From Atractiella rhizophila (Eukaryota): a DNA stretch of 32,731 nucleotides. The notes under the pieces are model-generated. The model saw only the letters and a list, made by a program, of their open reading frames with translations, had not been told where the DNA came from and searched no databases. Location: contig MU271431.1 in assembly GCA_021432655.1 (NCBI GenBank), positions 33,823-66,553 of the forward strand, in the 5' to 3' direction. Made by a program: the position numbers and the translations under genes. Below are positions 1 to 31,315 of the stretch, piece after piece. The stretch's first letter is position 1. Every line of letters starts with the position of its first letter.

Positions 1-2295
1 TGGCGTACCCTTTTTTGGTTGTGTTTCGGGACAAAACCCTACGGTGGCACGAGAATGTTCCATCCCAGTTTCAGCTTGAGAAGTCTCCCTAGTGACCACA
101 CCTGCAATATGGAGCAAGTCGACTACCTCTGCTTCCGTTTAATGTCAAAGGGTAATTTAGAGAAGAAAGGGGAGAGGTTTCGCAGGTGGTAGAAAGGTTG
201 TTACAGGAATTGATGACGAAAAAGTAGCGTAGGTAGCCCTTTCTCGCCTGAGGTTATTTACAACAAAAGTTATAGAAGGCTGACTTCAACTTCACCGGCT
301 CACTCAAGGGTATCATCTGCACACTGCACTAGTACCGAGGTTGCGGGTAGCAGCTGGTCTACAACGGAGTCTGCCATGCATTTTCGACCATTTGACCAGC
401 CAAACCTTCACAACTCTTCTTCATTAAAGAGCAATTTCCGTGAAAAGTTTCAGTTGGTGCTAACGTCACCTATCAGTGGCAAGACACCTTGTTTAAACTG
501 CGACACTTAACAACTCCTAAAAAGGAGACGCCTAAATCGCGAGACTTCACAACCCCTAGCTAGGAAACGTCTAAACCGAGATACTTCGCAACTCCTAGCA
601 AGGAAGCGGCTAAACTGCGAGACTACACGGCTCCTAGCAAGTAAGCGGAGCCGTAAGACAAGGTCCAGGAACCTTGGTGACTTCCAGGAAGGTCTGGGAA
701 GAGGACAACCACACAGGTCGAACGCCGAGGTTAGAGCGGAGTGGTAGGCAGAAAAACACAGGTCTATCTTTAACGTCTTTTTCAACTATTGCGTTATCTA
801 ATGCCTGAGCTGCAGTAGGTATTGGCTGACGAGCATACGTCGCAGGAAGCAGTAGTTGCGAGAGTCATGCGTAGCACTATTCATAACCTTCCACGGGAAG
901 TACTGCCAGTTGCTTAGTAGGATACTTCCGCTCACCGTTCGTTGAGTGACTTTCACCTACACCGAAACTTCGTACAAACGGGGACAAGAAGAGGAAAGCA
1001 TAGCTCTTCAGCTTTAGTAAGTCGGTAGGGTGATGATCTCGTAAGGACGGTGGGCACAGGCAGACCTTAAGCGCTTATTTCTACAACCGTATCCTTTGTA
1101 GAGCTACCTATTTTAGCACTAGCAAATTATACCGATTAAGACAATCCTCCAATTCGTTCGGGCTTTGTTTTACCCTCGTGCGTGCTCAATTCTGTGGAAA
1201 CTTGCGCAGCTCGTGTAGCAGTTCTGTAAATCGACTTCTTTCTCCCTTCGGCCGGCACCTTACCATTTACTCCTACCCTTAATCCAGTCAGAGGTACTGG
1301 AGGCTTTGTAGCGGCAGTAAGGTCTCTCGTAAAAACCTGTCCTAAAAAGACCAACTTTCTAATCCGACTCTTTCTTACTGTGCTCCTCGCACAGCTTCGG
1401 TAAGGTTTAGGCAGCGTAGGCGACCGCTAGGTAGCTCGAAAGCACCGCCAACCAGGAAGGTTTCGAGGGAGGTTAGTAACTTGACGAAATGCACGAGGAC
1501 GTTGGAAAGGTTGTGCAGGAGGCAGTCGGTGTGTACGAATTACTATGGTATGGGAGGAGGTAGGTCGAGCGTATAGGTTTGGACGCAAGGAGACGGCCGT
1601 TATCTTATACTTGCTTTATCTTAAAGGACCTGGGTCAAGTGGTACTTGAGCCTCGGTAACGGTTGCTGTACGGTAGGCAAGTCTGTAGGCAAATCCAGGT
1701 CAAATTTAAATACTAACCCTGAACCTTGCTTAACCATTCCTTCTTCGTATCACCTGCTGCCGCACCAACGTCTACTCCTGCGACCGACCTGACTTCCGTG
1801 AGCCTGCGATCCGCTGGACTGCGCCCTGGAACTCAGCCTTCTCATTAAGCACTTCAGACCGAGGAGTCAAGCTCTTGTTGACGGATGGAGGGTCCACTTC
1901 ACGGTGCGACCCAGCACTAGTTTCTACAACTCTTTAGGCTAGACAAGGAGCGAGCGAAAGCGTTTGACACGCTACTAGACACGCTGAAGAAACTTCACCA
2001 GAACCTCCTCAAAACCAAAAGGGACTTTCACGGGTGGTGCGTATGATAATTGGGTTCTCATTACAAATAGAGGTCGACATAGTTAGTTGTCTCAGGTCTG
2101 TTTTTGTCGCTCCAGAGCGGGGCTCTCACATTCGCCCGCAAAGCACGATCAACACACAAGGGTAGGCTTCGTCGTGTGACTTCAAGCAGAGACTTAAGAT
2201 TACGGTCGCTATACAAGCTCATGCGGAATTGTCCTCCCAACTAGAGTACCACCTGGTCCTAAGGCAAACTTCTTAGGGACAAGCTACCTAAGAGA
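1..2295. pseudogene. FunK1 kinase paralog (copy 1), present as reversed non-complemented (mirror) sequence; frameshifted
   Basis: Read backwards from 2295 to 1 without complementing, it aligns colinearly with 6308-8609, e.g. it yields gtgaggcgagattggagccgcaagctggacacaccaacaggagaagggtctggaaggacc as at 7867-7926. Introns and the 39-bp repeat are retained. At least three +1 indels relative to the intact copy (near 2135, 2101, 1240). Confidence 0.93.
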
Positions 2296-2485
2296 TGTTT
2301 CCCAATGCACTTGCAGAATTGGAGTCCTGCCACATTGCTTACATTTAACTGCATGATGTAAAAATACAGCCTTTCAATTTTATATACATTTCCCTCTTTC
2401 AAGCAAGCTCCTCCATTCACACTTCCGAGAATGTCCACCGTCCATACTCATATGGATCATTTGAATGTCGACCGTCTTGAATGAA
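2296..2485 (+). repeat. 3' flank of kinase copy 1 (normal orientation), paralogous to 8610-8800
   Basis: tgtttcccaatgcacttgcagaattggagtcctgc... matches 8610 onward and continues exactly where the backwards read of 1-2295 ends (...ccatgcggt). Confidence 0.92.
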
Positions 2486-2576
2486 TACAGTAAGAAGACT
2501 CGCGCTTTCTCGGAAGGAATGACTCAATACGAAAACCGCACTCCTGTCATATGTTAGCGGAGGGACCTGAGACGAC

Positions 2577-2663
2577 TGAGACCATCATCGTCGATGCAGA
2601 TCTATAAGTGAACGAAGGTAAATACAATGAGACTCAGATGAGACCATCATCGTCGATGCAGAT
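2577..2663. repeat. 25-bp direct repeat x2, period 62
   Basis: tgagaccatcatcgtcgatgcagat at 2577-2601 and 2639-2663. Confidence 0.9.
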
Positions 2664-2946
2664 GGGTCTCAATAAGCGCTGGAACCTTATCTGTGAGTGA
2701 TGGACCAACCATAAAACTCCAATTCCAACATCATAAAGTTGGCCACATAGGAAATGCTGATAGTGGCGGAAGTCACGGCAGCTGCATAATTCGTTTGCTA
2801 CTCATCCCCATAGAGGCATTCTTAAAGGGAGGATATTTTCCAAAGTGCTGTTTTTTGCTCCAAACCTGTCAGGATGATTTCACTGTACCAGAGGCACCAA
2901 AGGGAATTCCAGGGTCAAGCACATTAGTGCCAGTGGCATTTGTGAG

Positions 2947-3040
2947 CTGATCCTCAGCGAAATGAGATGGTGGAAACGCTCAATGACATGAAATGAAGCT
3001 ACATACCTGATCCTCAGCGAAATGAGATGGTGGAAACGCT
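2947..3040. repeat. 34-bp direct repeat x2, period 60
   Basis: ctgatcctcagcgaaatgagatggtggaaacgct at 2947-2980 and 3007-3040. Confidence 0.9.
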
Positions 3041-3262
3041 GGGGAATCAGGTTGGCGATCGCCCTAACCCTATGTACACGTGCCGACGAGTGGAGAACAA
3101 GATAGAGAGAGGGAAATGAAGCGAGAGGAAACGAGCGAATGGAAGGAACATGAACGAAGCGAGAGAAACGAGCGAAGGGAAGGAAAGTGACGAAGTAAAA
3201 CGGAGTCAAGTGGTATGTCCCTCTCTCACAGCATTCTCGTTCTCCATCCCCCTTCTACTGAT

Positions 3263-3729
3263 GTGAGAGACATCCCAATCTTCTCCTCGCTCGTCGCTTC
3301 GATCAGAGTCTCTTCTTCTCCTTCGCTCCGGATCACTTTCGTCCTCCACTTTCGAAAGTGCCCTCCTTTGCCCCTCAGGTCACCTTCCCTTGGAGGTTCT
3401 TCCGTGGAATCATCCCTCCCTTCTTATTGTGTAGATGCGCATGTTGAAACGGCGGTTGGGAGATTTGTGACTGTCACACGACATGTGTCGTTTGAAGTGA
3501 GAGACATCCCAATCTTCTCCTCGCTCGTCGCTTCGATCAGAGTCTCTTCTTCTCCTTCGCTCCGGATCACTTTCGTCCTCCACTTTCGAAAGTGCCCTCC
3601 TTTGCCCCTCAGGTCACCTTCCCTTGGAGGTTCTTCCGTGGAATCATCCCTCCCTTCTTATTGTGTAGATGCGCATGTTGAAACGGCGGTTGGGAGATTT
3701 GTGACTGTCACACGACATGTGTCGTTTGA
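3263..3729. repeat. Apparently perfect 234-bp tandem duplication
   Basis: Unit gtgagagacatcccaatc...gtcgtttga starts at 3263 and 3497; it shows as a duplicated 78-aa block in ORF 3215..3754. Confidence 0.95.
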
Positions 3730-4369
3730 GGCGCTTGCAAGACAACACGGATAAAACAGAGCCTGCCTCCTTTGCGCTTCTTCTGCATTGTCTTTCCAAC
3801 AATTGCACCTGCCTTCCAGGACTCGTTCAGCTTGAAAGGTTCAAACCATCCTGAGCCAGCGCAGTGAAGGAGAAAGCTGTTCCTGACCTCTCGCCAGTTC
3901 GTGCGACTATCAACAAGCGTCCACCTGTAGCCTCCGCCACAACACGTTCAAAGCGAGCCAATGAAGGTCAAAGAGGAAAACCAACCTAGCAAAAGTATAG
4001 TATGTTCGGAAGATCCGCGAACGAGTTGATTCTTTGTGACTGGAAGGGATCAACTTGATGTGAGTTACAACGGTGGTACTCCTGCAGTTGCCGAACTTTC
4101 CCACTTCTGCAACGACCGATGAGAACCTCAAGGGACGCCAGCAAGAAAACACCAAGCTCCTCATTCGACCTCCACAAGGAGGCGGGAGGGTAAATACCTT
4201 CCTGGCTCTTTCTAATGCCTGTCACAAAACAGTGTAAGATACCATGAGGGCTGGCGCTATTACACGCACTCGTCCACTAAGAAGTGGAGGAGCTATGGTG
4301 TCATCTTGTCTACCAGCACTCGTCGAGACCTCACCTCCTTACCTTGCTATGACTGACTGCGAAAAGCAA

Positions 4370-5030
4370 AGGAAGGTTGTGTCTCCATTTCTCTCTGTCA
4401 ATGACGAGAATAAAAAAACGATGAACCTAGCACATTCTAGCACCATTTGATGCTGAAGCAGGTTTGGACGCTTTCCGTCCATCGTCATAAGCCGAAACAG
4501 AGGTCCGAGCTTGGGGGAGGAGGATAGAGATCTTTGTCCAAAAGCAGCGGCTCTTCGGTTGATGGCGAGTGCAGTGTGGCTGAGATGTCATGCCAAGCTG
4601 GCAGTGGTAGGCACTGAAGCCGGCCGCAGAAGGTCCGCTGCGATTCGCCCATGAGAATCGAGAATCGGGTGCAAGAAGAAGGACAGAGAAGGAGGAAGGA
4701 AGGTGAACACCAAGCTGCAATTCAGTGTGAATTACTTCGTCGTTAGGCGTTGAACAAGCTTCCGGCGAAAGTCTGCAAGTAAAGGCATTGTTTTCTTCCT
4801 GTTTGTAACTCGCTGACACTTGCAAATTCCACTGAGATTCCTCAAGGATCAAATAATGTCGTAGCCTTTGTCTCTTGAGGTCTTTCGAACTGAGCAGTCA
4901 ATCAATTCGAAACGAGTGCTCTCGACATTCTTAACTCATCTTCTCCGTCCCTCCTCCTCTAGTTGTGTTGCCCATCGTCGGAGCGAGCAACAATTTGGGG
5001 GACATGGGGATCTTTCGAAATCGAGTTTCT
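4370..5030 (-). pseudogene. Decayed duplicate of the 3' part of the BTB/POZ gene at 27165-31315
   Basis: Colinear minus-strand matches to ~27370-28230: cgacgatgg.caac, ggaga.gatgagtt, cagttcgaa, ggaagcttgttcaa.gccta, tgcagcttggtgttc, gacatctcag, ttcagcatcaa, and an intron acceptor (tgacag..aaatggag). Frames are broken. Confidence 0.75.
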
Positions 5031-5875
5031 GCTCCCTGAATGTCGTAAGAAAGCTCATGAAATCCGTTGACTCCCTCTGGCGCAATGCGCAATGAAGGCA
5101 CCTGATATTATATAGCGGTGGCTTTCCAATGCTCTGCGCGTGCCACCATGAAGAATGCAATATCAAACGTGAAATAACAACGGGGCTGAGGAACGTATGC
5201 CTCCTTATCGTCTCCATTCCTTCCACTACTGCCGCATTTGGGATGCCATCCCCCTCTGAAAGAGACAACACGGCCTGTGGAGTGATTACTTTGGCACCTC
5301 TCTATGCATCACCTTTCATTAGACCGACTTGGTGCGGGATCTTATTCAAAGTGTACAGCACACAGAGTGCTCCTTCTGTCGCACTAACGCATTTTGACAG
5401 GTAGCATGGAAGGATGGAAGGGATGCAGAACGGCCCTGGAGAGGACAGGCTGCTCCTCCGCCTTCCTTTGTCCACATCAAGAAAGAGAAGCTTTTATTCC
5501 GCTTTCTCTCTCGGCTCCAGCCCGCTCTCAAGTCCATGCTCACCAACATATAATCTCTTCCACCTTTCATCCCAGAGGTCAAACCTTGATTTGCATCGAA
5601 TCGGGTTCCTTTCCGTCCATAGCCGAGATAAACCACAAACATGACAGTGAAACAAAAAGTGCAGAGGACAAATGCCCATTCTGTCCCAAGACAGCTCCGT
5701 TTCCACGCCACTTTTCCCCAGAATCGTCTCTCGCCCATGCCCATCTCCCCGACGTGATTTGGAGACTTCAGTCAGAACAACGTTAATCAACATCACCCTT
5801 TCTCCCCTTTCTTCCACATTCTCTTATTAAAACCGATAATCTCGAGCTCCATTTTCTCAACTTCGACAAACGAAT

Positions 5876-8469
5876 ATGACGAAAAGGAAGACAAAGAAGA
5901 CTCCAACGGAGAGAGCATCAACGCCACCACCTACCACTCCCAACTCTACTCAAAACACGAAGCAAAAATATCAACAAGAGGCAACTTCAAGAACGGTGCC
6001 ACCAAACTTCAAACCGTTGCAGCACAACCTGCCACTAGGTGAAAAACTCGACTTGGAATCACCGGTTGTGGTGTTGGAGGATCTACGGCCAAACATAGAC
6101 ATACCTGAGGTCGAACTGCCACCCGAGCTAACGACGTATAGGGCAGCGGACTGGAAGGATGAGAACTCGATTAAAACTTGGATGGACGAGCTGTATCGTG
6201 TGAGTGATTCACAGTTGATTGAGCGCCATGAATGAAGACACGGTGCTCCAGGTCGTGCGCAAGGAAAAGTCCAGATATTGCCAAGGTGGTACACGAATGC
6301 AGTTGTCAGAGAATCAGTCGACCAAGGATTCTTCAGAGCTGAACGGAATCTTGGTCCACCATGAGATCGACCCTCCTGTGAAGGCGTACTCGAACGTTTC
6401 GCTGTCATTCGAATTCAAAGACCAAGCTCAGAGTGCTGCTTCGGAAGGGAATACGCAACTAGCACGAAACTCTGCATACATTCTCGGGGCGAGACCTCGC
6501 TGTTTCATATGGAATCTGTTGATTGATAAAGCTGGAGATAAACATTTCTCTTGGGGTAAATGTATGCGGGGTGGGCACTTTCGGGGAAAGCCAAAACGCC
6601 TCGAAGACCACTTCAAAGAATTTGCACAGACCATCGCAAAGTTTGCGAAAGCGAGCGAGGAACAGATCGGATTTCTCAACATCTTTGATCACGACCCAGC
6701 GTGGCACTTCACCTGGGAGGTAGGCAGTTCGTCTCGAACTGAGGGGCCCGCCTCCACGAACCGTCCTTCCGCCTCAAGTTCCCGCGCCAGCTCCCCCAAC
6801 ATCTCGTTGCCTTCAGCCGAGCCATCATCCGCATCTACAACCACGCCATGGTCCACTATGCTCCTTCCTTCGCAATTCGTCCCAAACCCTAATCACAAAT
6901 TTAAACTGGACCTAAACGGATGTCTGAAGGGATGGGATGTCGTCGGCAAACGTTCCGAGTTCAAAGTGAACTGGGTCCAGGAAATTCTATTTCGTTCGTA
7001 CTCCGTTGCCGGCAGCGGAACGCAGGTTTGGATGTGCGAGCTGGAAGGAGGAGGGTACGGCGTCATTAAGCATGTGTGGCTGACGAAGGTCTTGTTGGAA
7101 AGGTTGAAAGAGCACGTAAAGCAGTTCGATGTTTGGAGGGACCTTTGGAAGGACCAACCGCCACTAAGGCACGATGGATCGCCAGCGGAAGCGGTGGATT
7201 TGACCTGGCTACGACACGCTCCTCGTCTCATTCTTTCTCAGCCTAATCTTTCAACCAGAAAACTCCTGTCCAAAAATGCGCTCTGGAATGGTGACGATGT
7301 TTCGGAGGTCATGGAGACTGACCTAATTCCCGTCCTCACCTACCACTCTACGGCGGGCCTCCCTCTTGCTTCAGCTAAACGTCTTGACGATGTGCTCGAC
7401 GCGTTCAAAGGTGTCTTGACGCGTACGGACTTTCTTGTTGCGTTTTGGGCTTGCCTTGATGTGTTAACAGAATTAGCCATGTTGAACGATCACGACTTTA
7501 TCCATCGAGATGTTTCCTATGCCAACATCTTTATTCGCGAGTTCCAGACGAACAGTGATGACGGGAATGCTCCAGCTGTTGGGTGGCTGAATGATTTCGA
7601 CCTCTCGATACGACGCGAGAAGAACAGGGGCAAACATGCTGCAAAGCCACATCCACTTTCAGCGAGTAGCTTGCCCTCGCCCCCGAATGTTTCGTCTTTG
7701 ACCTTTCATTTAGGGGACCTTCCTATTCCTGTCTCGATGCGTACTGAACGCTTTGAAGAAGAAAGGGGCTTCGTACGAGCAGTCGGTTATGGATGACATC
7801 GAGTCCGTTGTCTACTGCGTTATCTACTTTTTCTGCAATTTCTATCCGGACGCTACAGGACGGCTCGTGAGGCGAGATTGGAGCCGCAAGCTGGACACAC
7901 CAACAGGAGAAGGGTCTGGAAGGACCTTCAGTGGCTCCAAGGACCTGGAACAGAATGCCAAGAGGAATGAACGATCCTCCGCACAGCAGAGCGTCAAATC
8001 GGCGAAGGAACGATCCTCAACGCTCCATAGTGCTAAATCTGCAAAGGATCGATCCTCGACACTTCGCAGCGCTAAATCCGCAAAGGAAAAATCCTCAACA
8101 ATTCACAGCGTTGAATCCGTTCCGCAGAACATTGACTATCCACTCCAACCGTGGTTGACTCTGAGAAGTGCCTTTAACGAGAAATTACTTCTTCTCAACA
8201 CTTCCAAACCGACCAGTTTACCAGCTTTTACGTACCGTCTGAGCGAACATCTGGTCGACGATGGGCGTTGGAACCAAGATCACATCGCACGTCTACTTTG
8301 GGAACTCACTCGGCCACTTCAACTTCAGTCGGAAGATATTGTAAACGACATTTATTGGAGTCCGCTCTTTCCCGATGGATGCGATGAAAAAGCAGTAGTT
8401 AAGGACATTGTTGGAAAGATGGTGGAAGCTCTGGAGAGGGGAAAGAAGAGATTTAATGGGAAACTGTAA
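5876..8469 (+). CDS. Fungal protein kinase, FunK1 (Pkinase_fungal) family, ~813 aa; exons 5876-6199, 6252-7422, 7471-7661, 7714-8469
   Basis: Introns 6200-6251 (GTGAGT..CAG), 7423-7470 (GTACGG..CAG) and 7662-7713 (GCGAGT..TAG) join three ORF-track fragments in frame. Motifs SVAGSGTQVW, VIKHVW, HRDVSYANIFI, WLNDFDLS, GTFLFLS and DDIESVVY match FunK1 kinases (HRDxSxxN loop, DFD, GT..F.S, DDLES). Confidence 0.9.
7969..8118 (+). repeat. Coding 39-bp (13-aa) tandem repeat, ~4 units, in the kinase C-lobe
   Basis: ERSSAQQSVKSAK / ERSSTLHSAKSAK / DRSSTLRSAKSAK / EKSSTIHSVES. Confidence 0.9.
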
Positions 8470-8901
8470 GTTGCCTTCGTCTCCATCAGCTGAACGAGGT
8501 ATAACGTCCACACTAGTGATCCCTCTGAAGAGTTCGACTTTGAACCTGCCTCGTGAGAGCACAGTGGCATCCCAAAACAGGGCTTTGCGTTGGTTTTTTC
8601 CCATGCGGTTGTTTCCCAATGCACTTGCAGAATTGGAGTCCTGCGACACTGCTTACATTTAACTGCATGATGTAAAAATACAGCCTTTCAATTTTATATA
8701 AATTTCCCTCTTTCAAGCAAGCTCCTCTGTTCATTCTTCCACGAATGTTCACCCTCGATGCTCATATGGATAACTTGAATGTCGCGCGTCTTAAGTGAAT
8801 GAGAAGGGCAGAAATGGGTGCCTCAACAAGTCCTCACTTGCTGCGGGCCTCCACACATGAATAAGACATAGGAGTTTGGAGCAATTGTGGAGGGTCGGAA
8901 G

Positions 8902-9868
8902 CTGGAACTGATATGCGTCTGTCATGATAACTCATGTTCAAATCACATGAAAATGTCCCCAAATCTTGGAGCTCATGTTCATATCATGTTCATTCTTTAA
9001 AATATCTAAGCAATCATGACAAGGGTGAATGAAGCATGAAATTTCGTGATAAATCATGAGTATGAATCTTGATGAGATTATTAGTGCGTGGCACGTTCGA
9101 GACTGCAAGGTGCAAGACCGAAACATGCAGTGTTAATATTGTAGTATATGTGTGATAAGTGAAATACATTACCAGCAAGGTGCGAGACCGAAACATGCAG
9201 TGGGTCTCACACTTGCAGGGCAATTCTTCTTATAGCAAAGGAGGCTGAGTAATAAGAAAGCGCAAGCAAGAAGTGAAGGAAAGCTTAAGACACACCAAAC
9301 GTGATGGAAGGAGGAGGCACAAGTGCTCCCGTGGCCCCATCAAGTCTAAGAGTGAAAAATCGTGAAGCTCAAGCATACCTCACCTGCGACACAGTTGTCT
9401 GAGAGAAGTACTGCTTTGAACTTGTCTTCAAACGGGTTGTGCTCAGCCGAAGAACTCCTTTCCCTGGGACAAGAATGTACCTACCGTCGCCAATGCAAGT
9501 TGAGCAAACTGGTGAAACAAAGGCGTAGCTGGGCCGAGATCTGAATCTAGGCCTCAAGGCATGACCAAGTGTAGCACAAGGGGGCCCCATTGCACCAGGA
9601 ATATTTCATGATATGGCAAATTGCCATGGATTCATCATTCTCATGTTTTAATAATGAGTACGCCGATCATCATGAAAACTCATGAGTTGGACGAGTTTAC
9701 AACTTGCAGTATTGGACAAATGAGTTTACAACTTGCAGTATTGGACAAATCGTGTTCATTTCATATTCGTCTCATATTAGAGGGTTTCATATGAGCAGCT
9801 AACTCATGAGTTAGGTGTGAATAATAGCATGATAACCAGTGATTAACCAGCTTTCAGATCAGTCCCTA
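8902..9868. mobile_element. Degenerate non-coding TE relic, possibly a non-autonomous DNA transposon
   Basis: Many TCATG/CATGA motifs (CpG-decay pattern); internal repeats at 9105-9132 and 9176-9203 and a 29-bp tandem at 9693-9750; weak terminal inverted similarity (ggaactgat / atcagtccc). No convincing TSD. Confidence 0.35.
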
Positions 9869-11275
9869 TGTCAAAAGCACACCAGACTATAATACATACT
9901 ATCCTCACTGCACTGAGATAAGCGCTGTGGTGCCAGCACCAGTCCCCAAACAGAATCACATATGCGCACGACGTAAAAATTGCTTGCATTGTAAGAGTTA
10001 CTTACATGAGAAGTTTTGAAAGATCCATACTGAATAACTGAATGCTCGCTTGCAAGAGGATCACACCCACGCAAAGTGTCATTGTATTCACACAGTACAG
10101 AACAATCACTGACTGTGAGGGACGTCAATGTCAATGGTGGTGATGCCGAACAAGTTCACACAGTGAAGGAAGGACACTAAACCATGACAAAGTAGCATAG
10201 AGCAAGAAATGGAACAGCCAACATCACTCCAGCATGATGTCAATGTGCATCAAGCACCATGAGAAAGCTTGCACACGAGCAATGAAACCAGAACACTCTG
10301 ATAGGCATAGAAGTGGGAAAGCACACCTCATGCATGATATGCGAATGGAGGGAAAAACCAAATGGATGGAAAGGAAGCCAAGGAAGGGGAGGATGTGAGT
10401 CAAGTAGAAGTTAGAATCAGAAACTTCGGGAGGATGGAGAGAATAAACATAGGGGTACAACAAGCAGGAGCACAACCTGAAGCAGATGTTGCACAGTCAA
10501 AGATGTGAAGCAACATACAGAATAGGTTTTTTTTGGCATATGTATTGATATAACAAAATAAACCAACAAAAAGACGGAGGAATTGCAGACCTGTTTAGGG
10601 CTTGTGAATATAGGGCATTGAGAAGACAAACGTTAAACAGAAAACCAAACCAACCAAGAATAGCAAGAATTTGAATTTGTTTTATGGTCGAGCGGCTCCT
10701 GAGAAGGAAGGCAAGCGATTGAGACTTCTTTACGCCTGTGAATGTGAAATCGAGGAGAGGGAATCCACAGGAAATGAGAATCGAAGAGAGCATAGAAGCC
10801 GAGTAGGCACCTACTTCATCTAAGGACCACATAACTAGATGGCTGAATTCGCAATCACACTCGGAGGAAGATCAATCAAAGGAGCAGGGATAGGGTCACC
10901 GTTAAGCCAGACCACGACGAAGAAAAGGGGTAGTGATGACCGCCCCTGTGGCAGAAATACGGACATAGATGCCCTTTGCAGTGAACAAGACTTCATGATC
11001 CGTGTCTTTGACAATTTGAGAGACAGAGAAGAGAAGTACGAATAGCAGGAACATAGAGGACCTCACGAAGTCAGAGGACACATGGAGAGCCATTTGAAGT
11101 GTGAGTAGAGTAGAACATCTCACCATGACCAAAGATAGGCACCTTGACTCCATTGCCCACTTCAACGGTTTCAGTACCCAACTCTTCTTTGAAATTGTGG
11201 ATAACTTCCTCCAAAACCCTGTAGGCTTGGAAGAGCCCAAGTCAAGACATCCTTGATCTGAGCTATGAAGGGAGC

Positions 11276-11671
11276 TGTTAGGGCTGACACTATGTGCGGT
11301 CGCCGACGGGCGATGCGTCTGTAGTGGAGATAAGCCTAAGTGCATGATATGACATGAAGACTAACTTGTAGTGGAGATAAACCTAAGAGAATACTCTAAG
11401 GTCACCTTCACTACTCTCTGATCTATATATACAAGTGGAATAATACTGCCACAGAGCGTAGAGGAGAGCAGATGAAACATGTAAGAGAACCAAAAGGGGA
11501 AGTGACAGTGGGATTACACGGAGTTAATAAGAGGAGGATAGGCACAATTGGGCTAAGTGGTGATGTAGGTGCAAATGGGCGACGGGCGCCGATTCGCAGG
11601 GAACGCAAATGGGCGATAGGAGACGCAATCCGGGGAATGGACGCCGATTTGCGTAAGATGCAAACCTGACA
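11276..11671 (-). mobile_element. LTR (396 bp) without matching TSD
   Basis: TGTTAGG...CCTGACA termini; near-identical inverted copy of 22603-23019 lacking 21 bp. Flanks GGAGC and ATATC differ. Strand is inferred. Confidence 0.88.
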
Positions 11672-18552: not shown

Positions 18553-21220
18553 GTGGAAGATCATCTTGAGATCAAAGATTTGGGCCATCAAGGCAAAGCT
18601 TTTCAATGGACTAACTTTGAATTTGAGCAAAATATCAATCAAGAGGAGGATGCTCAAAATCCATTACCTCCACCACCTGCTGTTGAGCTTTGGGAGACGA
18701 TGAACTCTTCAATCTTTGCTTGTATCAGTGGTTCCAAGAACACCCTGGGGTCACACAGACTGCTTTCGACGATTTACTCCAACTTTTGCGCCATTTTAAT
18801 CTTTACTATGATTCACGCTCACGATATCGTAACGAGAACTTGGCAGAAAAGCTCACAAACCTTGAAGGAAATGAGCGAGATTGTTGTATTAACTCTTGTA
18901 TATCTTATACTGGCAGGTATAAAGATACCTTGGATTGCCCCTACTGTGGCGAATCAAGATATGACGAACAACATTTGGTGAAGAGAAAGAAGGTTCCACA
19001 AGAGCTTCATTTGGCTTCCCATTGCTCCTTGTATTCAGGCAATGTATCGGCGATCATTTCGTGCTGAAGCCATGCTATACCGTACGAGAGCAACTGCGAT
19101 AATGCAAGCAAATGCTGATAAACCGATGGAAGACTACATTGACTCTGAAAATTACAATCAACTTCGCCAAAGGTTTTTTAACAATGATCGGGATGTTGCT
19201 TTGCTTTTCTCCTCTGGCTCAAATCTTTCGTGACAAGCACTCAGACGCTTGGCTGGTCATTCTCTTGACCTTCAATTTATCTCCGGAGGAAAGTGTCAAA
19301 AAAACATAATATGATCCTCATTCTATTATTCCTGGACCAAATAATGCAAAGATATCTTTACTTTCATTCAAGAGCCACTGGAAGAACTGAAGAAGCTTGA
19401 GACTGAAGGCATTCGTACCTGTGATGAGACGGAGCAGGAATGGTTCACTTGCCATGTCTATCTTCTTCTAGTCGCTGCTGATATGCAAGGAAGCTCAAAA
19501 TTTTCTTGCACTGTGGGCCTACAAGGCAGGTGTGGTTGCAGCTTTTGCTACCTCATCGGTTATTATACAGGAAAGAGTGGATACTATTATGCTTTTGAGA
19601 ATCCAACTGATGACTTTGAATTTGGGACAACAAGATGAAGGAAGAAGGGGATCCACAAAGAGCAATATTCGAGAGAGTTACCACCTGCAAGAGTACAGAT
19701 GATACTTATGGGTCAGAAATGACACAGCTTTTACTTCCAAATCTCAAGAGGAGGCAGCAAAGCTTACCACCAGGTTTGGAATCGTCTGAAAGACTCCTTT
19801 TGCAAGCTGTGACACTTTTACCTGGCCATACTTCTTCCCGATCGATACTATGCATTTGTTCTTCCAACTTGTTACACTTTCCATGTTCAAAATTTGGCAT
19901 GGTGATGAGCAGATGGGCTTGAATGGGACTGAAGATTTTATCATCCCAGACGAAAGGTGGAAGGGGAGTGGTAGGCGTCAAAACTACATTTGAATCTACA
20001 TAACAAACTCTTCGTACTAGGTGCATTAATGGAAAATGCCCTCGATTTTGGCCAACAGCCTTTGGTGAGTGACCACGAAATATCTACACTGCTTGGACTC
20101 CCTACAAGAATAAAGATTGGGCTCAATGGTGCTTCATTTGGTCTCGACAATTTTTGCCTCATTTTTTACAGCCAAAATACCTGGACCACTGGCTCAAGTT
20201 TGTTACAGAAGTAATAATTGCTTGCCAGACACAGATCACTCATGAGGAACTTCTTGAGATGAAGCAACTCTTTGAAGAATTTCATGATGGGTTTATGCTT
20301 CTTTATTATCAGCGGAAAATCAAGCAGATCAAGATGTGTCAAATGACTCTTCATCGCCTTGTACTTGTCTATGACTGTATTCTGGAAATGGGATCTGTCT
20401 GGGTCTATTGGCAGTATCCCATGGAATGGTTGATCGGTCAAATGGTTCAATCTCTCCAGAATGTCACACAGTATACAGCAACTTTAGCACGTCTCATGCT
20501 TCACCGCGAGCATGTCAATATTGTCAACTGGCTTCATCCATTACCCAAAGACTGCCATATCTCGTGTCCCTTTCACAAGAGTATTTGGGATGACTCTTGC
20601 TTTCTAACTGTCAAGAGGGAGAAAAATCCATCTTTGTACAAGTCACCTCGAGAAGCCTGTTAGGGCTAACACTATGTGCGGTCGCCGATAGGCGATGCGT
20701 CTGTAGTGGAGGTAAACCTAAGTGATAGTATGGCATGAGAAGACTAACCTGTAGTGGAGGTAAACCTAAGAGAATACTCTGAGGTCACTACCACTACATC
20801 TCGATGTATATATACATATTTAAAAGCACTGCCATGAACTGTAACATATGATTCTTGAAACATGTAAGATAGCTAGATCAGGAAAGCAACAAAGGGAATA
20901 CGCGGAAATAAGGCATGTTGAACAGTACAAGTGAGAAAGGATAATAAGGCAATAATGGAGACGGTGCAGACCGGCGAAATGTATAAGGTTTGCTGAGCGG
21001 CGATTCGTGTGAGATAGGGAAAGCGGCGATCAGCGCGTACGTGAGCAAAGCGGCGATGGGGGGCACGTGATCCCATAACGTCGTGAAGTAGGTCACGTGA
21101 CTTCGTGTGGTGCATTTCGATAATGCGTAGGGGCAAGCCTGACAAAGCCCTTGTCCGATATATTTATTGGCAACATAACCAACAAGATTTCTTCGGTCTG
21201 GATGAAGATGACATGGTGTC
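18553..21220 (+). mobile_element. Degenerate CACTA/En-Spm (Transposase_21/tnp2-type) transposase, interrupted by a solo LTR
   Basis: DCCINSCISYTG..CPYCGESRY zinc motif; DRDVALLFS; AQIFRDKHSDAW; FNLSPE; IIPGP; ADMQGSSK..GRCGCSFC; FPIDTMHL; LHRLVLVYDCILEMGSVWVYWQYPME. The frame resumes after the LTR (PREA|LVRYIYWQ). Confidence 0.88.
20658..21144 (-). mobile_element. Solo LTR (487 bp), sister subfamily, 5-bp TSD AAGCC
   Basis: TGTTAGG...CCTGACA termini flanked by AAGCC at 20653-20657 and 21145-21149; the first ~200 bp match the 11276 LTR and the rest is diverged. Strand is inferred. Confidence 0.92.
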
Positions 21221-22602: not shown

Positions 22603-23019
22603 TGTCAGGTTTGCATCTTACGCAAATCGGCGCCCGTTCGCCGGATTGCGTCTCCTATCGCCCATTTGCGTTCCCTGCGAATCGGCGCCCGTTCGCCGGA
22701 CTGCGTCTCCCGTCGCCCATTTGCACCTACATCACCACTTAGCCCAATTGTGCCTATCCTCCTCTTATTAACTCCGCGTAATCCCACTGTCGCTTCCCCT
22801 TTTAGTTCTCTTACATGTTTCATCTGCTCTCCTCTACGCTCTGTGGCAGTGTTATTCCGCTTGGATATATAGATCAGAGAGTAGTGGAGGTGACCTTAGA
22901 GTATTCCCTTAGGTTTATCTCCACTACAAGTTAGTCTTCATGTCATATCATGCACTTAGGTTTATCTCCACTACAGACGCATCGCCTATCGGCGACCGCA
23001 CATAGTGTCAGCCCTAACA
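22603..23019 (+). mobile_element. Solo LTR (417 bp), 5-bp TSD GACGG, nested in the hAT left end
   Basis: TGTCAGG...CCTAACA flanked by GACGG at 22598-22602 and 23020-23024; CpG-rich; TATATAG at ~22866. Confidence 0.93.
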
Positions 23020-23505
23020 GACGGCAAGAAACGGTGTGCAGACAGACGGGTTTGACAGTGAACATGGGTCAGAACACGGGTGTTCAACAAAATATTTCTT
23101 TATTCCATCCAGCGCCGCCAGAATATGTGATTCATACCACAAGCTGGGGGGCCCCTCGTCCCTCGGGGGGACCACATTGTGTTTCTGCTGTTTTTCAATG
23201 AAAAGTGGTTGACTATGCTGTTAGGAACATGCTGAGAGATAATCAGTGATTGAGTACTCATAACACTTCTTTGGAACTACATTATCTGTTAAATTGTGTG
23301 CAGGCACTCACAGTTTCAAGAGTGACAAATGTGAGGGAACAGAGAATCGAACCAACACCAAAAACAAAATTATGTCACACTCTCACTTAACACCAACTAC
23401 ACCATCGCACAGACTCTTTGTCTCAAAACCCGATGTCAAGTAGGTAAGGAAAACTTGCCCTAAGTACCAACTTGACACACAATTATTTCTGGTCCTTTAA
23501 ATAAG

Positions 23506-23720: not shown

Positions 23721-24099
23721 GGTGAGAGAAGCGCTCAAGAGTACATGCGTGAGTCATGCTAAAAACTCGTCGTGCTTTATGTATAAGGATATTTTAGCTG
23801 CTAACTACTAATGCCGGCAAGCCTAGGCTTGTTTGGCTAGGCGGTTGAGCCGGCCCACATAAGGTTAGGTTTGTACTGACCCAGAAGCCCCTTTCTGGCC
23901 GTTTTCGGGCCATGCAAAGGAATGTTTGCTCTGCCGCACACAAGAAAATATGAAATTACGAAAAGCTTGCAGCAAAACAAGCAAAAAACGGTAAAAAAAC
24001 CTTGAAATTCATATAACAACCGTTGTTCCCCATCTGACCCGTCATGGAATGCAAGAGAGGGCTGATGGACGGGTGTTACCCGTCCGTTTTCTTCAAAAA

Positions 24100-24139
24100 G
24101 AGAGAAGTAACGTCAGAAGAAACAGAAGGAGGAGCAGTA
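24100..24139. pseudogene. 5' start of kinase copy 3 (mirrored)
   Basis: Backwards from 24139: ATGACGAGGAGGAAGACAAAGAAGACTGCAATGAAGAGAG = MTRRKTKKTAMKR, versus MTKRKTKKTPTER at 5876. Confidence 0.85.
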
Positions 24140-24395
24140 TATCTCCCCTGTCTACTCAGTTACGTCCCCTGACCTACTCTAATTATATTACACACGACAG
24201 GGTCAGTAAACTGCGCTTTCTAGCTTACGAGCTTGCGGTACTATAGGACGTACTTTGTAGTGGGAGAAGAGAGGACAGGAGGTCGTGTGAGATAAGGACC
24301 ACCTGGGGTGAGAGTAGTAAGGTAAAGGACGACGGAGTCCCATGTCCGTTAAACGCTCTATTGAGGTGAAGCGCCTAGTAGAGGAAGGTTTCAAT

Positions 24396-24859
24396 CTCGG
24401 GCAAACCGACGGTTAAGTCGGACTTAAGCTTAAAACACTTAACGGACTTAACCCTTAGGTTAAGTTCGTCGAAGGACTTAACTCTTAAACTTAAGTTCGA
24501 CAACGGTTTGCGTTAAGACTAAACCTTTTAAAACGAACGTAAGCGAACCGGCACTCGTACGGCGTTGACTCAGGAGTGGGCGTAAAAAAACCACAAAGTT
24601 ATATAAGGGCCAGTACCTGTCCTGGCTCTCCACAGGCAAAGTAGAGGGCCGTTGTTTAAGTCCTTTAAATTCTAGCTTTATGTCGAGACCTCGAGCTAAA
24701 GCTAAAAACTTTAGAACCGACCCCACTTAACGTTAAGTGTCTAACTCTTAACGTTAGAAAACCGGCGGTTTGCCATGCGACTTAACGGACTAATCCCAGG
24801 TTAAGTGCAGGTTAAGTGGGGTCGGTCCTAAAGCTTAAACCCTCAACGGTTTGTCCGAG
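24396..24859. mobile_element. PIF/Harbinger-type MITE (464 bp) with TAA TSD, mirrored
   Basis: Backwards read: TAA|GAGCCTGTTTGGC...GCCAAACGGGCTC|TAA; the interior is rich in GAATT motifs, which appear as TTAAG in the given text. Confidence 0.85.
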
Positions 24860-24947
24860 AATCCCGAAAGTGGCAGTGGTAGTTCTGCCCACTGCCCAGG
24901 CCCTGCCTGCCGTAAAAACCGGTGGGCAGGGCATAGGGTTGGTATTA

Positions 24948-25192
24948 NNNNNNNNNNNNNNNNNNNNNNNNNNNNNNNNNNNNNNNNNNNNNNNNNNNNN
25001 NNNNNNNNNNNNNNNNNNNNNNNNNNNNNNNNNNNNNNNNNNNNNNNNNNNNNNNNNNNNNNNNNNNNNNNNNNNNNNNNNNNNNNNNNNNNNNNNNNNN
25101 NNNNNNNNNNNNNNNNNNNNNNNNNNNNNNNNNNNNNNNNNNNNNNNNNNNNNNNNNNNNNNNNNNNNNNNNNNNNNNNNNNNNNNNNNNNN
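24948..25192. other. Assembly gap (245 N)
   Basis: Run of N. Confidence 1.
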
Positions 25193-26575
25193 CCTTTTCT
25201 TGGTGTCCCTACATTTCAGGACAAACGCTACATCGACGCGATAATCGTACCGATTACCGGCTGGAGAAGTCTCCCTAGTGATCCCTGCAATATGGTGTAA
25301 GTCGACGACCTCTGGTGACGAGCATACGTCGCAGGAAGCAGTAGTTGCGAGAGTCATGCGTAGCTCTATTCATAACCTTCCACGGGAAGTACTGCCAGTT
25401 TCTTATTCGGATACGTCCGCTCCCGTTCGATGAGTGACTCTAACCTACACCCGAAACTTCCCACAAGCGGGAACAGGAAGAGGGCAGCATAGCTCTTTAG
25501 CTTTAGTAAGTCGGTAGGCTGTCGACCTCGTAAGGGCAGTAGTGACAAGCAGACCTTGCGCGCTTATTTCTACAACCGTATCCTTTGTAGCGCTACCTAT
25601 TCCAGCACTAGCAAATTGTACCGATTAAGACTGTTGTTTAGTTCCGTTCGGGGTTTTGCTTTTCTCTCGTGCGTGCGCAGTTCTGTGGAAACTTGCGCAG
25701 CTCGTGTAGCAGTTCTGAAAGTCGACTTCTTTCTCCCTCCGGCCGGCATCTTAACATCTACTCCTGCCCTTAATCCAGTCAGAGGTACTGGAGGCTTTGT
25801 AGCGGCGGTAAGGTCTCACGTAAAACCTGTCCTAAAAAGACCAACTTTCTAATCCGACTCTTTCTTACTCTACTCCTCGCACAGCTTCGGTAAGGTTTAG
25901 GCAGCGTAGACGACCGCTAGGTAGCTCGAAAGCTCCGCCAACCAGGAAGGTTTCGAGGGAGGTTGGTAACTTGACGAAATGCACGAGGAGGTTGGAAAAG
26001 TTGTGCAGGAGGCAGTCGGTATGTACGAATTACTGTGGTATGGGTGGAGGAAGGTCGAGCGTGTAGGTTTGAACACAAGGAGATGGTCGTTATCTCATAC
26101 TTGCTTTTTCTTAAAGGTCCTGGGTCAACCCGAATTTGAGCCTTGAGAACGGCTGTTGTAGGGTAGGGAAGTTTGTAGGCAAAGAGGAAGTTGCGGAAGT
26201 CATGCGTAGCTCTGTCCTTATCCTTCCAGGGGACTTACTTCCCAGTTTCTTGTTTGTAGGTCCCGCTCCCGTTCGACGAGTGCCTTTCACCTACACCGAA
26301 ACTTCGTACAAACGGGGACAAGAAGAGCGCAGCATAGCTATTCAGCTTTAGTAAGTCGGTGGGCTGTCGACCTCGTAAGGGCAGTAGTGACAAGCAGACC
26401 TTGAGCGCTTATTTCTACAACCGTATCCTTTGTAGAGCTACCTATTTCAGCACTAGCAAGGTGTACCGATTAAGACAATTGTGCAGTTCCGTTCGGGTTT
26501 TTGTTGTTCTTTCAGGCATGCGCAGTTCTGTGGAAACTTGCGCAGCTCGTGTAGCAGTTCTGCAAATCGAGTGCA
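25193..26575. pseudogene. 3' part of kinase copy 3, mirrored, internally duplicated and deleted
   Basis: Backwards read aligns to ~7372-7760 (26570 to 26183), then ~6915-7784 (26182 to 25316), then ~8480-8600 (25315 to 25193). Most of exon 4 is missing; one-base deletion near 25822. Confidence 0.9.
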
Positions 26576-27164
26576 CATGCAGCCTTGCACACATCGCCTG
26601 TATTCAATTGCATTTTGCAGAAATACAGTCTTATTTTGAATTTTGGCCCAGCACGCAAGCTGCCTCATTAACATTCCCTCACAAGCACCTTAAGTTAGAC
26701 GGGTTACTTAGAATACGTCGTGTACCCTCAGTCCCACTTAGGAAACCACACTAACTCCACAAAGTGGCAGGAGAGAAAGGTACGACAGAAGCCTAATAGA
26801 TGAGATAACAATATTGCCCAACCTCCCCCAGGATGGAGAATTGAATTGCGACGATGTCTGGTCAGTTATTTCAGTGCCAATGAGCCTAAGTCGTTATTCG
26901 TATGCGCCTCAAGAAACATAACAGACAACTCGTGCTTAAATGCACGACATGTTGGTTGGAACGGTACAATTGAAGATTCCACAAAAATCTAGCTGAAAGT
27001 GTACGATAAGAAGAATGACCAGACTTGCAAAGAGGACGAAAACAGAAGCCTGAGTAAAGTCATTAGTAATCCTATTGCTAGCAAATGCACATGCAACAAA
27101 GAAACCAAGGATTTGCAGAAGAAAGACGAACAAAACTAAATAAGCATAACAAATGATGAACTTC

Positions 27165-30100
27165 TCAGATGACCCCCATGACAATTGTGCACCTCAGGGA
27201 ATCCCACTTCCCACCTGCACAACATCAGCATTGGATATTCGGGTCGTCTCACTTACCGGCACCGGCACCGAGGTATTCTTCACTTCTCAAGCTTGTGCTC
27301 TTCCATCCCCAGCTTTGTGAAACAGCGAATGAATCGGGACCAGACGCAAACTTGGTGAGTGCCGTGCCTCCATTTCCTGTCAGTCGACAAAGACAACACA
27401 GAGAAGAAAGACCATACCCAATAAGTTCTGGCAGTTGATGCTGAAGTAAGTTTGGATGGCTTTCCTTCTGTCGACATAGGGAACCACGATTGCAGCTCGA
27501 GGTGGATGGAGGTCGTCACCCAAAAGTGGTGGCTCTTCTGTCGATGGGGAATCCAGTGCGACTGAGATGTCAGGGGAGCTGGCACTTGGAGGTCGTGAAG
27601 CTGGCGGCGGAGGGTCCGTCATGGTTTGGCGATGGAGATATACCTATTCAGACCGTGAGGAACGGATATAAGGGAGAAGGAAAGCGAACACCAAGCTGCA
27701 GTTGCTTCTTTCGAACGATTTGAAGGTAGGCATTGAACAAGCTTCCAGCGTATACGAAAGTTTGCGAATAAAGTCTCTGTTTCTCCTTTAGCTCGCTTAC
27801 ACCCCAGAACTCCACAGAGAATCGGCATGGCTCATACGCGGTCGCCTTCCTTCCTTCGAGTTCTTCGAACTGTGTGGTCAATAAAGATGAACGAATGGCG
27901 GTCGATAAGGAGAAGAAGCGATCGGCGCCAGGGGGAAGGGACATCGGGGATGAGGAATGCCGACGAGGGTGTGACGGCGGGAGAGGAAGGGAGAAGTCAG
28001 ACAGCCTGCGTTATCATTAGTACAGCCAGCTCCGACGCGGAAGGCACATACCGTAAGGTTGAATCCACAGGCACCATGAACCACTTCGAAACGTCTTTAT
28101 CTCCAAGGTCGCTCTCCTTCGAAACCAGCTTTTTCGAAATACCCAACTCATCCTCTCCATCCTTCTCTGGTTGTCCATCGTCGAATCGAGCAGCGAATGC
28201 ATTTGGGGCGATTGGAATCTTTGCCTTGAACTCTTCGGCCATCCATAGAGCCTTCCGCAGGACTTCCTTATCAACGTACGGTTGGCCAGTTATAGGACAC
28301 ATGTCTTTGCCGATTTTCTCCAATTGAAGAAACGTCAAGTGCGAGTAATAGATCCCATCTGCGAACAGAGCTTTGAATTCTCGCTCCTCATCTTCGTCTG
28401 CAAGCAAATCCGTCCCGTCTACAGAATCAATGCCTCGAGACTTTTCCCCATCGACAGATGAGGACATATCCATCGACGCAAGAGATTCAGCCAAACGATC
28501 TTCCGCGACACCTAATTGCCTATCTTTCCGACGAAGGTCGACCACTCTCTTTGCTACAGAATATCGATCGAATTCGCCACCACCTGCCATGTTGCTTGTG
28601 GAAGTGTCAGCACCGAGGTTACTCATGAAGAAGGCGTCGCTGCTGATAATACCGCGAATCCAGCTAGCGGGAACCCCTCCGCTCCTCCAAACTCTGAGGT
28701 CAGGGCGCTTCAGACACTGCCATCGCGCGTAGACAGGATGTGTGAGGTATTGATGGAGGTTTCGCGTGGTTCGCACTTGATTGAGGCGCGATAGCGGATC
28801 TTGAAGCTGCTCTTCGATCGGAAGGATGTCGCTGCCCCATTTTGCCAACCAGCACGCGCACGATTCTCCCACCCTTTCTTGAATTGGGCCGTAAAAGAAA
28901 TCGCCAGCTCCGGAAGAGATGGACGCGGTAGGATCGAGAACGTTGTTGGGAAGCCAACTACCGACTCCTTCAAGGCCACGGCATCCTGATTCTCTTTCTT
29001 CTTTCCCCGACCAGCCTGTAACCCCTTGGCCAAGCGAGAACCTGAGATAAGTGAGGATAGTGAAAGGGGTGATGCTGTTCTGTATCATAGCCATCACGCT
29101 CTGGACCAGAGGCGGTATCGAGAGGTAAGTCGCGGTAGCGAGAAGAGAAAGGAGGAACTGAGGAGTCGCGGGATGAGGACCTGATCCGTCAGGTTGCACC
29201 CATTCGTCCAGGGTAAGCAACTCATCGTGCTCGGAATCCCTGACATCTGCCAATGCATGAAAAGCCGGTCCAAGCGGTGTTCCAGCGAGTGGTTGAGTCC
29301 TAGCCCAATAGGGGAGCAACAACGAGGGAGGATGACCATAAAGGTGTCCGAGACAGTACTCGAACGCCGCGCGTGTGATTTGATGACTGGCCGGACCTTC
29401 GAAGTGGAGGGTGAGGAAGGACGAGTCGTCTTCTGGGACGTTGGGATGGACGGACGCCTTGGAGGAGGTGGCTGAAGAGTTGGAAGAGACTGATGAAGCT
29501 CGAGAGCGCGTCCGCGGCTTTGCCTTTGCCTTTCACGTCAGCGCGAGATCGAAATCCTGGTTGGCGACCGCGCGCTCCTGATTCTCTCCACCGCCTTGTA
29601 GCATGCTCGCGAAGAATTCGGATTGTCCAAGCACAAGACGATGCACCCTGTTCACACAAATATACTCACGTCAGACGTCTGCCTCATAAGTGAGAGGGAT
29701 ATCATCCATCATGACACCGGTTTAAAGCTGGTGAACTGCCACGACATTCGTGACCTCGAGTCTGCACGATACTTGTGCGGACAGAACACTGGAGGTCAAA
29801 GTAGATACATAGAGTCGCGCCAGCCCTGTGATCTGTATTTAGAATGAGAAAAAGGACAGATATAATCGCATATACAACATACAGGGCACCAGTAGCGCTT
29901 TAGACTCTCGAAAGAAATCGAGAAGCGAAATCACAAAGAACATCGTGAAAATTCACGAGAATCAAATCCAACTCGCACTTTATGGGACATCGCTTACTCC
30001 AAGACGCCATATAAATCCAAATCTTTTTCAGCGAAGTAGAACAGATCCAAATCTATCTCTGCCCCGAATCACTCAACGCTGTGCCCACTGCGTTGTGTAC

Positions 30101-31315
30101 CTGAGGTCCAGCGCGGTGAAACGGCGCGACGCGTCAACAATCCACGATCACGCTTTCCTTCTCCGCGCAGACAGAAAGGTATGAACGGGGCAACCACTTT
30201 GAAAAATCACTCATTACTTTGCCTTCCATTTCCATGTCCATTTGACTAAGGTCGCTTTGACGCGCCATTCGGTCCCAGTCCACTCTTCGAACTTTGGGTC
30301 AAGTGGCTGAACTCGTTCTCCAGCTCAAACGCGCCAGAACCGATCTCACATCCCCAAACCCAACATTCCACACAACCCCAATCCCAAAACAAGGCTCTCT
30401 CAATTTCGCACCAAAGAAATACAGAGAACTAGAGGAGAGAGTGTGAAGGAACAGGAAGACGAACCGATATCCCCTCCCCCACGGCCACACTCTAACCTCC
30501 AAATCGCTCATCCCTCCCTTCAGCAAGCCCTGCTCATAAAGATAGCTCGAAAGTCCGCCTCCTGCTCCTCCTAATCCTCCCAAAAGGCCGAATCCACTCC
30601 CTCCCATACCCATGCCCATGCCCATACTGGCGCCGTCGAACACACGACTGCCACCGAACGCGCCAGTCCCGAGAGAAGGGTGTTGTGGGGAAGGGTCGGA
30701 GGGAGGGAGGGGGAGAGGGACGTGTAGACCCGTTCCTGCGCTTGGGCTTGGGGTGGTGGGCGTGAGACCGAGCGCGCTACCTAGGTGGAGGGGACGCTGC
30801 GTTGAGAGTGTAGGGTTGGGCTGAGCGTTCGTATTATTGTTATTACTACTAATAATGGCGCTGGTGGTGCTAGTGGCGGTGGCGGGAGTGGTGGTGGCAG
30901 TAGAGGTCGAAGGAAGGACGGCAGACGGGGTGGAGGCGGACGCGCCGTGTCGCGTGAGGTTGGAGGTGGACGACGAAGCTTGAGCGCCAGCGGTGCGCGG
31001 TCTCGAAGCACTCGAGGGGAGAGGCGCGACCGTCCTCGGCCTACTTGGCGTGCTCGCTCCTCCTCCTCCTCCTCCACTTGCAGGCGTGTGACCCGAAGAA
31101 GGTGCCACGGCCGGAGCAGGCCGCGGACTGCCCCCGGTGTGGGTGAGAGAGGATACGACGGCGTGCACCGGTGTGGAGGTGCCGCGGGGCCGTGTGGGCG
31201 GGGGAGAGGACGGCGGAGAGGGAGGAGAGGAGGAGGGAGGGGAGAAGGAGAGCTGCCGGGAGGCTGGATCCCAGAAGAGGGAGAGCTCGGTGGGCGGGTG
31301 TTTTGGTTTGGCCAT
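27165..31315 (-). CDS. BTB/POZ-domain protein (fungal Btb2/germ-cell-less-like type); exons 31315-30465, 29647-28052, 28005-27690, 27643-27418, 27376-27257, 27214-27165
   Basis: GT-AG introns join LYEQGLLKGGMSDLEVRVW..GYR|VHRLVLGQSEFF..ITRAAFEYCLGHLYG (BTB) to the conserved C-terminus PCRFSVEF..YAGSLFNAYLQ..LG|VYLHRQ..PYVDRR..YFSI..SGPDSFAVSQSWGWKS..LRCTIVMGVI*. One in-frame TGA at 29533-29535 needs explaining. Long Pro/Ser/Gly-rich N-terminus. Confidence 0.85.

Follow-up and report, generated by a model that had tools for sequence, protein, structure and literature searches.

Stretches of FunK1 kinase paralogs probably stored in reverse order without complementation in the draft assembly of Atractiella rhizophila

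Gene content of the window

The DNA analysed here, referred to as the window, is a stretch of 32,731 nucleotides. The public protein models P0009 and P0017 map on it at 98.7–100%, and therefore the window is part of the public assembly of Atractiella rhizophila. In a 2026 study, this assembly is the only representative of the Atractiellomycetes and is described as unpublished genome data (PMC13347111). A genome paper for A. rhizophila was not found among the literature matches listed. The features of the window to which the text refers are the following:

1–2295, no strand given: piece A, written backwards and flipped in place, 89.3% identical to 6308–8609
2296–2486, plus strand: 3′ flank of the hidden paralog, normally written, direct repeat of 8610–8800
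5876–8466, plus strand: FunK1 kinase gene, normally written, its aligned part 6308–8609 mirrored by piece A
8610–8800, plus strand: kinase 3′ flank, repeated at 2296–2486 and, more diverged, at 26572–26730
24068–24947, no strand given: left piece, written backwards at a contig end, with negative log-odds and a change point at 24067
24948–25192, no strand given: run of 245 N, the only one in the window, taken as a scaffold gap
25193–26570, no strand given: right piece, written backwards at a contig start and flipped in place, with negative log-odds
26572–26730, plus strand: normally oriented homolog of the kinase 3′ flank, diverged from it, compared with 8620–8800 and 2306–2476
27651–31384, minus strand: BTB-like gene, normally written, corresponding to model P0017, with 28995–31342 mirrored in public protein P0007

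The region 6219–7796 of the kinase gene matches the Pfam family PF17667, Fungal protein kinase (FunK1), with an E value of 6.5e-12. The public model P0009 (477 aa) covers 5876–6202 at 100% and 6237–7355 at 98.7% identity, and two splice joints, 6199/6252 and 7422/7471, both with GT..AG ends, are seen in contigs of the sequencing run X3. All the relatives of the kinase ORF were A. rhizophila proteins. Internal repeats of about 39 bases, which encode KSAKxRSS-like units in the C-terminal region of the kinase, were observed at 8001–8119 and at 494–648, and are visible in both the forward and the backwards copies.

The second gene of interest is the BTB-like gene. The public model P0017 (466 aa) is 100% identical to the translation of 29094–28051 and 28007–27651, and the 511-aa ORF located at 28000–29532 on the minus strand has 89 relatives at E ≤ 1e-5, many of them from Agaricomycetes and many named as BTB domain-containing proteins. 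Since these 89 homologs are distributed across fungi, the orientation in which the window presents this gene is the real one. The P0017 model starts at 29094 while the open frame continues upstream to 29532, and the relatives from other fungi have about 740–890 aa; the model is probably truncated at its 5′ end. In addition, a short relic at 4746–4928 (minus strand) is 54% identical to residues 381–440 of P0017, which suggests a repeated module made up of a kinase and a BTB-like gene.

Pfam searches on 14 neighbouring ORFs gave no family at E ≤ 0.01. One of the remaining features is a near-perfect tandem duplication of about 235 bases (3259–3495 and 3493–3729, 99.6%), lying inside the ORF 3215–3754, in which only a sub-threshold PHP_C match was found; in one contig of run X3, 3262 is followed directly by 3497, so that one tandem unit is missing. 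The other is a repeat some 418 bases long, two copies of which lie in inverted orientation at a distance of 11 kb from each other (11275–11671 and 22603–23020, 91.6%), with a partial third copy of 160 bases at 20657–20816. This repeat may be the remnant of a mobile element, and no Pfam family was found in neighbouring ORFs.

A reversed, non-complemented copy of the kinase gene at the start of the window

The initial annotation of this DNA, made from the sequence alone, had claimed that bases 2295 to 1, read backwards on the same strand, align colinearly with 6308–8609 as a diverged paralog of a kinase gene. The alignment that it proposed was run. Reversed but not complemented, 1–2295 aligned locally with 6201–8700 from end to end (2295..1 against 6308..8609), giving 12 blocks with 2044 identical positions in 2288 columns (89.3%) and a score of 3281. 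In the same way, when the window was reversed and compared by BLAST with itself as written, 2299..1 was paired with 6303..8609 (2780 bits, E = 0). In the descending direction, from 2295 to 1, piece A corresponds to the 3′-terminal 2.3 kb of a paralogous FunK1 kinase gene: it begins within exon 2 and extends some 140 bases beyond the stop codon.

The three control readings of piece A gave scores of 26 (forward), 24 (reverse-complement) and 23 (complement). As written, the piece is not a direct segmental or tandem duplication, as indicated by the forward score, nor an inverted repeat or inversion, as indicated by the reverse-complement score. Direct duplication was only found once piece A was un-reversed, at the 89.3% identity given above, and for the adjoining flank, where 2296–2486 repeats 8610–8800 at 90.1% over 191 bases (BLAST). 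Chance or low-complexity similarity was also considered as the source of the match and is ruled out by the distance between 3281 and the control scores, the identity over 2288 columns and the 2780 bits.

The block is reversed in place. Bases 2296–2310 are equal to 8610–8624, and the stretch 8594–8624 carries both junction strings joined, so that the window bases 1 and 2296 are the counterparts of the adjacent bases 8609 and 8610. Bases 1–16 read backwards give the string quoted in the initial annotation, and the sequence from 2296 continues as it does from 8610. The annotation was thus right about colinearity, about the in-place flip and, given the PF17667 match, about the mirrored gene being a kinase. 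Its statement that the block is invisible to BLAST and to six-frame translation also held: as written, piece A has 33–50 stops per frame and no ORF of at least 100 aa, and its readings other than the mirror one scored only 23–26 in the alignment.

Reads and metagenomes

Three sequencing runs hold 0.31, 0.29 and 0.23 of the words sampled from 1–4590, and their contigs were placed on 1–9200 at a likeness of 85. Contig depth was above zero in all three runs in 23 of the 23 bins of 2150–9200. It was zero in all three in the 7 bins covering 1–2149, although an uncovered stretch proves nothing by itself. Coverage of 1–2149 as written, which the initial annotation had set against an artefact, was therefore not seen in these three runs, and its absence is not counted here as evidence. 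Among the matches listed for the three runs, there was no loose end or joint at 2295/2296 and no contig bridging this junction, either as written or un-reversed. On 6308–8609, 8 of the 11 best-supported other read letters are equal to the backwards copy, which is too weak to carry weight because many paralogs share those states. With regard to metagenomes, a scan with an exact 35-base pattern taken from 2321–2355 gave 0 matches, and a protein-based scan with 7714–8466 gave 135 pattern matches, none of which was confirmed.

Coding features of piece A read backwards

Read backwards in the frame of the forward copy, with the exons assumed to be 6308–7422, 7471–7660 and 7714–8465, piece A contains 0 stops in 680 codons. 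When the same 214 substitutions were placed at random with their spectrum kept, 5000 simulations gave a mean of 9.1 stops, and none of the 5000 was free of them. The substitutions between piece A and the forward copy are distributed over codon positions 1, 2 and 3 as 63, 57 and 94 (chi-square, p = 0.004). The changed codons comprise 52 synonymous and 127 non-synonymous cases, and the hidden paralog was thus under only mild purifying selection; the amino-acid identity of the two copies is 81%. The one intron examined, 7423–7470, as defined by the spliced contig of run X3, shows no more than 71% identity between the two copies, but its GT..AG ends are kept in the backwards reading at 1184..1140. 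The open frame, the excess of changes at third positions and the kept splice ends together imply that the 11% divergence arose while this DNA was readable, and that the flip came later.

Two ORFs of 436 aa (919–2226) and 259 aa (144–920) are found in the backwards reading. All 19 public family proteins that were retrieved match it, with up to 533 bits and with best stretches of 37–87% identity. However, none of the 19 corresponds to it, the best being 87% identical over 86 aa, and none of the five short public proteins found as candidates for the hidden paralog matched it above 87%. The lack of a public model is what would be expected if the gene callers saw the block as written. Judging from its sequence, and from its 81% identity to a forward copy that matches PF17667, the hidden gene is a FunK1 paralog that is apparently intact within the piece. 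It has no 5′ end, being cut at the limit of piece A, and the scaffold probably also stops at that point.

These features bear on the alternative that the genome really carries a kilobase-scale, reverse-only duplicate of the kinase (2.3 kb in the case of piece A), produced by some process that writes a strand backwards. The string is certainly present in the sequence as given, and no read showing the un-reversed junction was seen among those examined. However, such a duplicate would have lost its coding capacity at the moment of its formation, and it would then hardly present an uninterrupted frame of 680 codons, a third-position excess and conserved splice ends after 11% of divergence. It would also contradict the templated, antiparallel synthesis of DNA, and we know of no copying, recombination or transposition process that yields a reverse-only copy. 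Finally, pieces of this type sit at contig ends beside a gap, as described below. We consider a real mirror copy so improbable that it carries almost no weight against an error in the stored sequence.

An orientation statistic independent of paralogs

DNA is symmetric between its two strands and not between its two reading directions. For this reason, log-odds of k-mers against their reversed spellings were calculated in 500-base bins with k = 4. Only the non-kinase parts of the window were used for training, on both strands and with the tested bin left out. Among the normal bins, 54 of 55 were positive (mean +41.5, sd 20.6), and the only negative one (−6.4) was the low-complexity stretch 30501–31000. 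In contrast, all 9 bins of 1–2000 and 24001–26500 were negative, with values from −14 to −74. The log-odds obtained with k = 2, 3 and 5 agreed with those of k = 4. The cumulative score changed direction at 2292, 24067 and 26499, the first of these points lying three bases from the limit of 2295 obtained by alignment. The negative values and the change point at 24067 indicate that the region from about 24068 to 24947 is also written backwards, despite having almost no counterpart in the window.

The region 30500–31500 is Ser/Pro/Thr/Gly-rich coding sequence at the 5′ part of the BTB-like gene. Long open frames are found there whichever of the forward, reversed and complementary readings is taken, and this low-complexity stretch is the only one in the window that reads alike in both directions. 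Its log-odds are near zero, and so the statistic is blind there. Elsewhere, the k-mer orientation log-odds find reversed pieces without the help of any paralog, which would make them suitable for screening complete assemblies, among them others from the same pipeline.

Backwards pieces on both sides of the gap

Backwards sequence is therefore present beyond the block that the initial annotation had reported, namely at about 24068–24947 and at 25193–26570, immediately before and after the N run. The left limit of the left piece lies between 24068 and 24100, as judged from composition and from the end of homology; at this junction the window holds no paralog that would permit a colinearity test. 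Read backwards, the last 42 bases of the piece (24141..24100) are the start of FunK1 exon 1 and match 5874–5915 with a score of 59, against a background of 25–29. An exon-1 start that runs into the gap is what would be expected of a contig that ends within a repeated gene.

The right piece, read backwards, contains FunK1 fragments in the order 7373–7764, 6914–7787 and 8479–8601. BLAST of the reversed window showed that 26181–26570 mirrors 7373–7764 (94.6%), 25313–26183 mirrors 6914–7787 (87%) and 25260–25314 mirrors 8479–8536 (88%). The last match extends in the backwards reading over 25314..25193, against 8479–8601, and as a consequence the piece ends at the equivalent of 8601. Residues 173–292 of the public protein P0002 are 99.2% identical to the backwards translation of 26182–25823. 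Furthermore, 823–1693 of piece A matches 25313–26183 directly at 89.5%, as expected of two backwards copies of one gene. The parts of the right piece differ in their closest relative, which is P0002 at 99.2% for one, and the forward copy at 94.6% and at 87% for the others. On this pattern, the right piece looks like the product of a greedy walk that hopped between paralogs.

Directly after the right piece, 26572–26730 was compared with the two kinase flanks and gave scores of 76 and 83, while shuffled sequences gave a mean of 34 and a maximum of 64. This stretch continues the kinase flank in the normal direction, so 25193–26570 was reversed on its own and in place, like piece A. A single reversed block of 2.5 kb extending over the gap (24068–26570) was also considered and rejected: in that case 26571 would adjoin the exon-1 fragment, and this fragment has no continuation there. 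Two separately reversed pieces are preferred, given that 26572–26730 follows a piece ending at the equivalent of 8601.

A mirrored stretch in a protein from another scaffold

Public protein P0007 (763 aa) is encoded on a contig of 316,639 bases, which is another scaffold. Its residues 1–350 are the normal C-terminal half of a FunK1 kinase, 81–91% identical to the translation of window 7311–8466. Residues 354–763, on the other hand, match only the complement-without-reverse reading of window 28995–31342, in the following segments:

Residues 354–405: complement-only match, 96%
Residues 405–423: complement-only match, 89%
Residues 420–506: complement-only match, 66%
Residues 462–486: complement-only match, 100%
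Residues 524–716: complement-only match, 89%
Residues 732–763: complement-only match, 94%

These matches indicate that the BTB-like gene also exists in mirrored form on the other scaffold, and that a gene model was called through this copy. Going by this comparison of sequences, the tail of P0007, about 410 residues, appears to be phantom protein sequence in the public databases. The case may differ in detail from those in the window, since an in-place reversal would orient the BTB-like gene oppositely to the arrangement seen here. The mirrored tail also places the reversal error in the public assembly and proteome themselves.

This bears directly on the possibility that the flip postdates the public record and arose either in the preparation of the window or as a planted reversed decoy, the public assembly being correct at this locus. 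Two observations would agree with such an origin: the first base of the block is also the first base of the window, and reversed, non-complemented sequence is a standard negative control in homology searches. Nevertheless, P0007 was itself translated from mirrored DNA on a different scaffold, which shows that pieces of this kind do exist in the public assembly. The other pieces of the window adjoin an N gap and have irregular lengths (about 850–880 and 1378 bases), and 0 of the 19 public family proteins correspond to backwards piece A. A flip made after deposition is accordingly very unlikely, and the reversal is better placed in the assembly as deposited.

Origin and consequences of the reversed pieces

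Taking all the results together, we consider that 1–2295 is a real stretch of a FunK1 paralog that was written reversed and without complementation into the public assembly, with contig-end extension or gap filling as the likeliest cause; to this reading we assign a probability of about 0.94. The initial annotation had likewise attributed the block to an error of assembly or processing, and this is now supported by the coding features of the backwards reading, the composition switch at 2292, the pieces at the gap edges and P0007.

Three properties of the pieces are relevant to how the error could have arisen. Their lengths are 2295, about 850–880 and 1378 bases. Two of them abut the N run 24948–25192 and piece A starts at window base 1. 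At least two of them, when turned in place, become exactly colinear again with the kinase gene and the flank that follows it. As the exact in-place pivot requires piece A to begin at base 1, we infer that window base 1 is the start of a scaffold. The location of the pieces at contig ends, observed beside the gap and probable for piece A, fits an extension or gap-filling step with a wrongly ordered output. The initial annotation had already suggested a wrongly ordered contig extension, and this suggestion gains support, as an interpretation, from the pieces abutting the gap and from the in-place flips.

The following sequence of events would account for the data. The genome would carry a real FunK1 paralog whose 3′ 2.3 kb stand directly upstream of base 2296. 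In the public draft assembly, this stretch would have been stored in reverse order without complementation, probably by a contig-end extension or gap-filling step that saved the newly walked bases in the wrong order. The same reversal would have affected both sides of the gap and at least one stretch on another scaffold. No published report of an assembly error consisting of reversal without complementation was found among the literature matches listed.

With the flips undone, nothing biologically new is left at this locus, which is then an ordinary FunK1 cluster made up of diverged paralogs and a repeated 3′ flank, with the BTB-like gene located downstream. Its FunK1 content consists of the hidden copy (1–2295), the normal copy (5876–8466), the fragments of 25193–26570 and the exon-1 start at 24141–24100. 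The value of these results lies in data curation, as a quality flag for this assembly, and not in biology. The deposited assembly contains pieces that cannot be seen by BLAST, six-frame translation or gene callers, and the artefact would hide from these tools at least one kinase paralog that is apparently intact. A systematic error of this type matters to the users of the assembly because, in the 2026 phylogenomic study, it is the sole representative of the Atractiellomycetes (PMC13347111).

Comparison with known systems

Natural mirror repeats, of the kind that form H-DNA or triplexes, are short homopurine–homopyrimidine tracts with adjoining symmetric arms. They share with the pieces described here the property of giving the same reading in both directions on one strand. 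However, piece A is not a repeat of this type, as it consists of 2295 bases (2.3 kb) of mixed coding sequence located 4 kb from its counterpart.

The pieces resemble misoriented contig ends, that is, reverse-complement inversions, in being blocks at contig ends (for piece A, probably), in belonging to a multi-copy family and in having the wrong orientation with respect to their neighbours. The difference is that an ordinary inversion is reverse-complemented and remains visible to BLAST and to gene callers, whereas piece A scores 24 as reverse-complement and 3281 as reverse only.

Genome copies that are reversed and not complemented are used deliberately as negative controls in searches for repeats and homology. 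The string operation is identical to that observed here: the base composition is kept, and BLAST and translation match nothing. Such decoys are made on purpose and kept apart from the real sequence. In contrast, the pieces described here are unintended, have 0.85–2.3 kb, sit without a visible seam at contig ends of a deposited assembly and were passed on to gene models.

Finally, when turned round, the locus is the same as other clusters of FunK1 (PF17667) paralogs, with several diverged copies and fragments and a repeated 3′ flank. Its hidden copy lacks the 5′ end, and after un-flipping nothing unusual is left to set the locus apart from those clusters.
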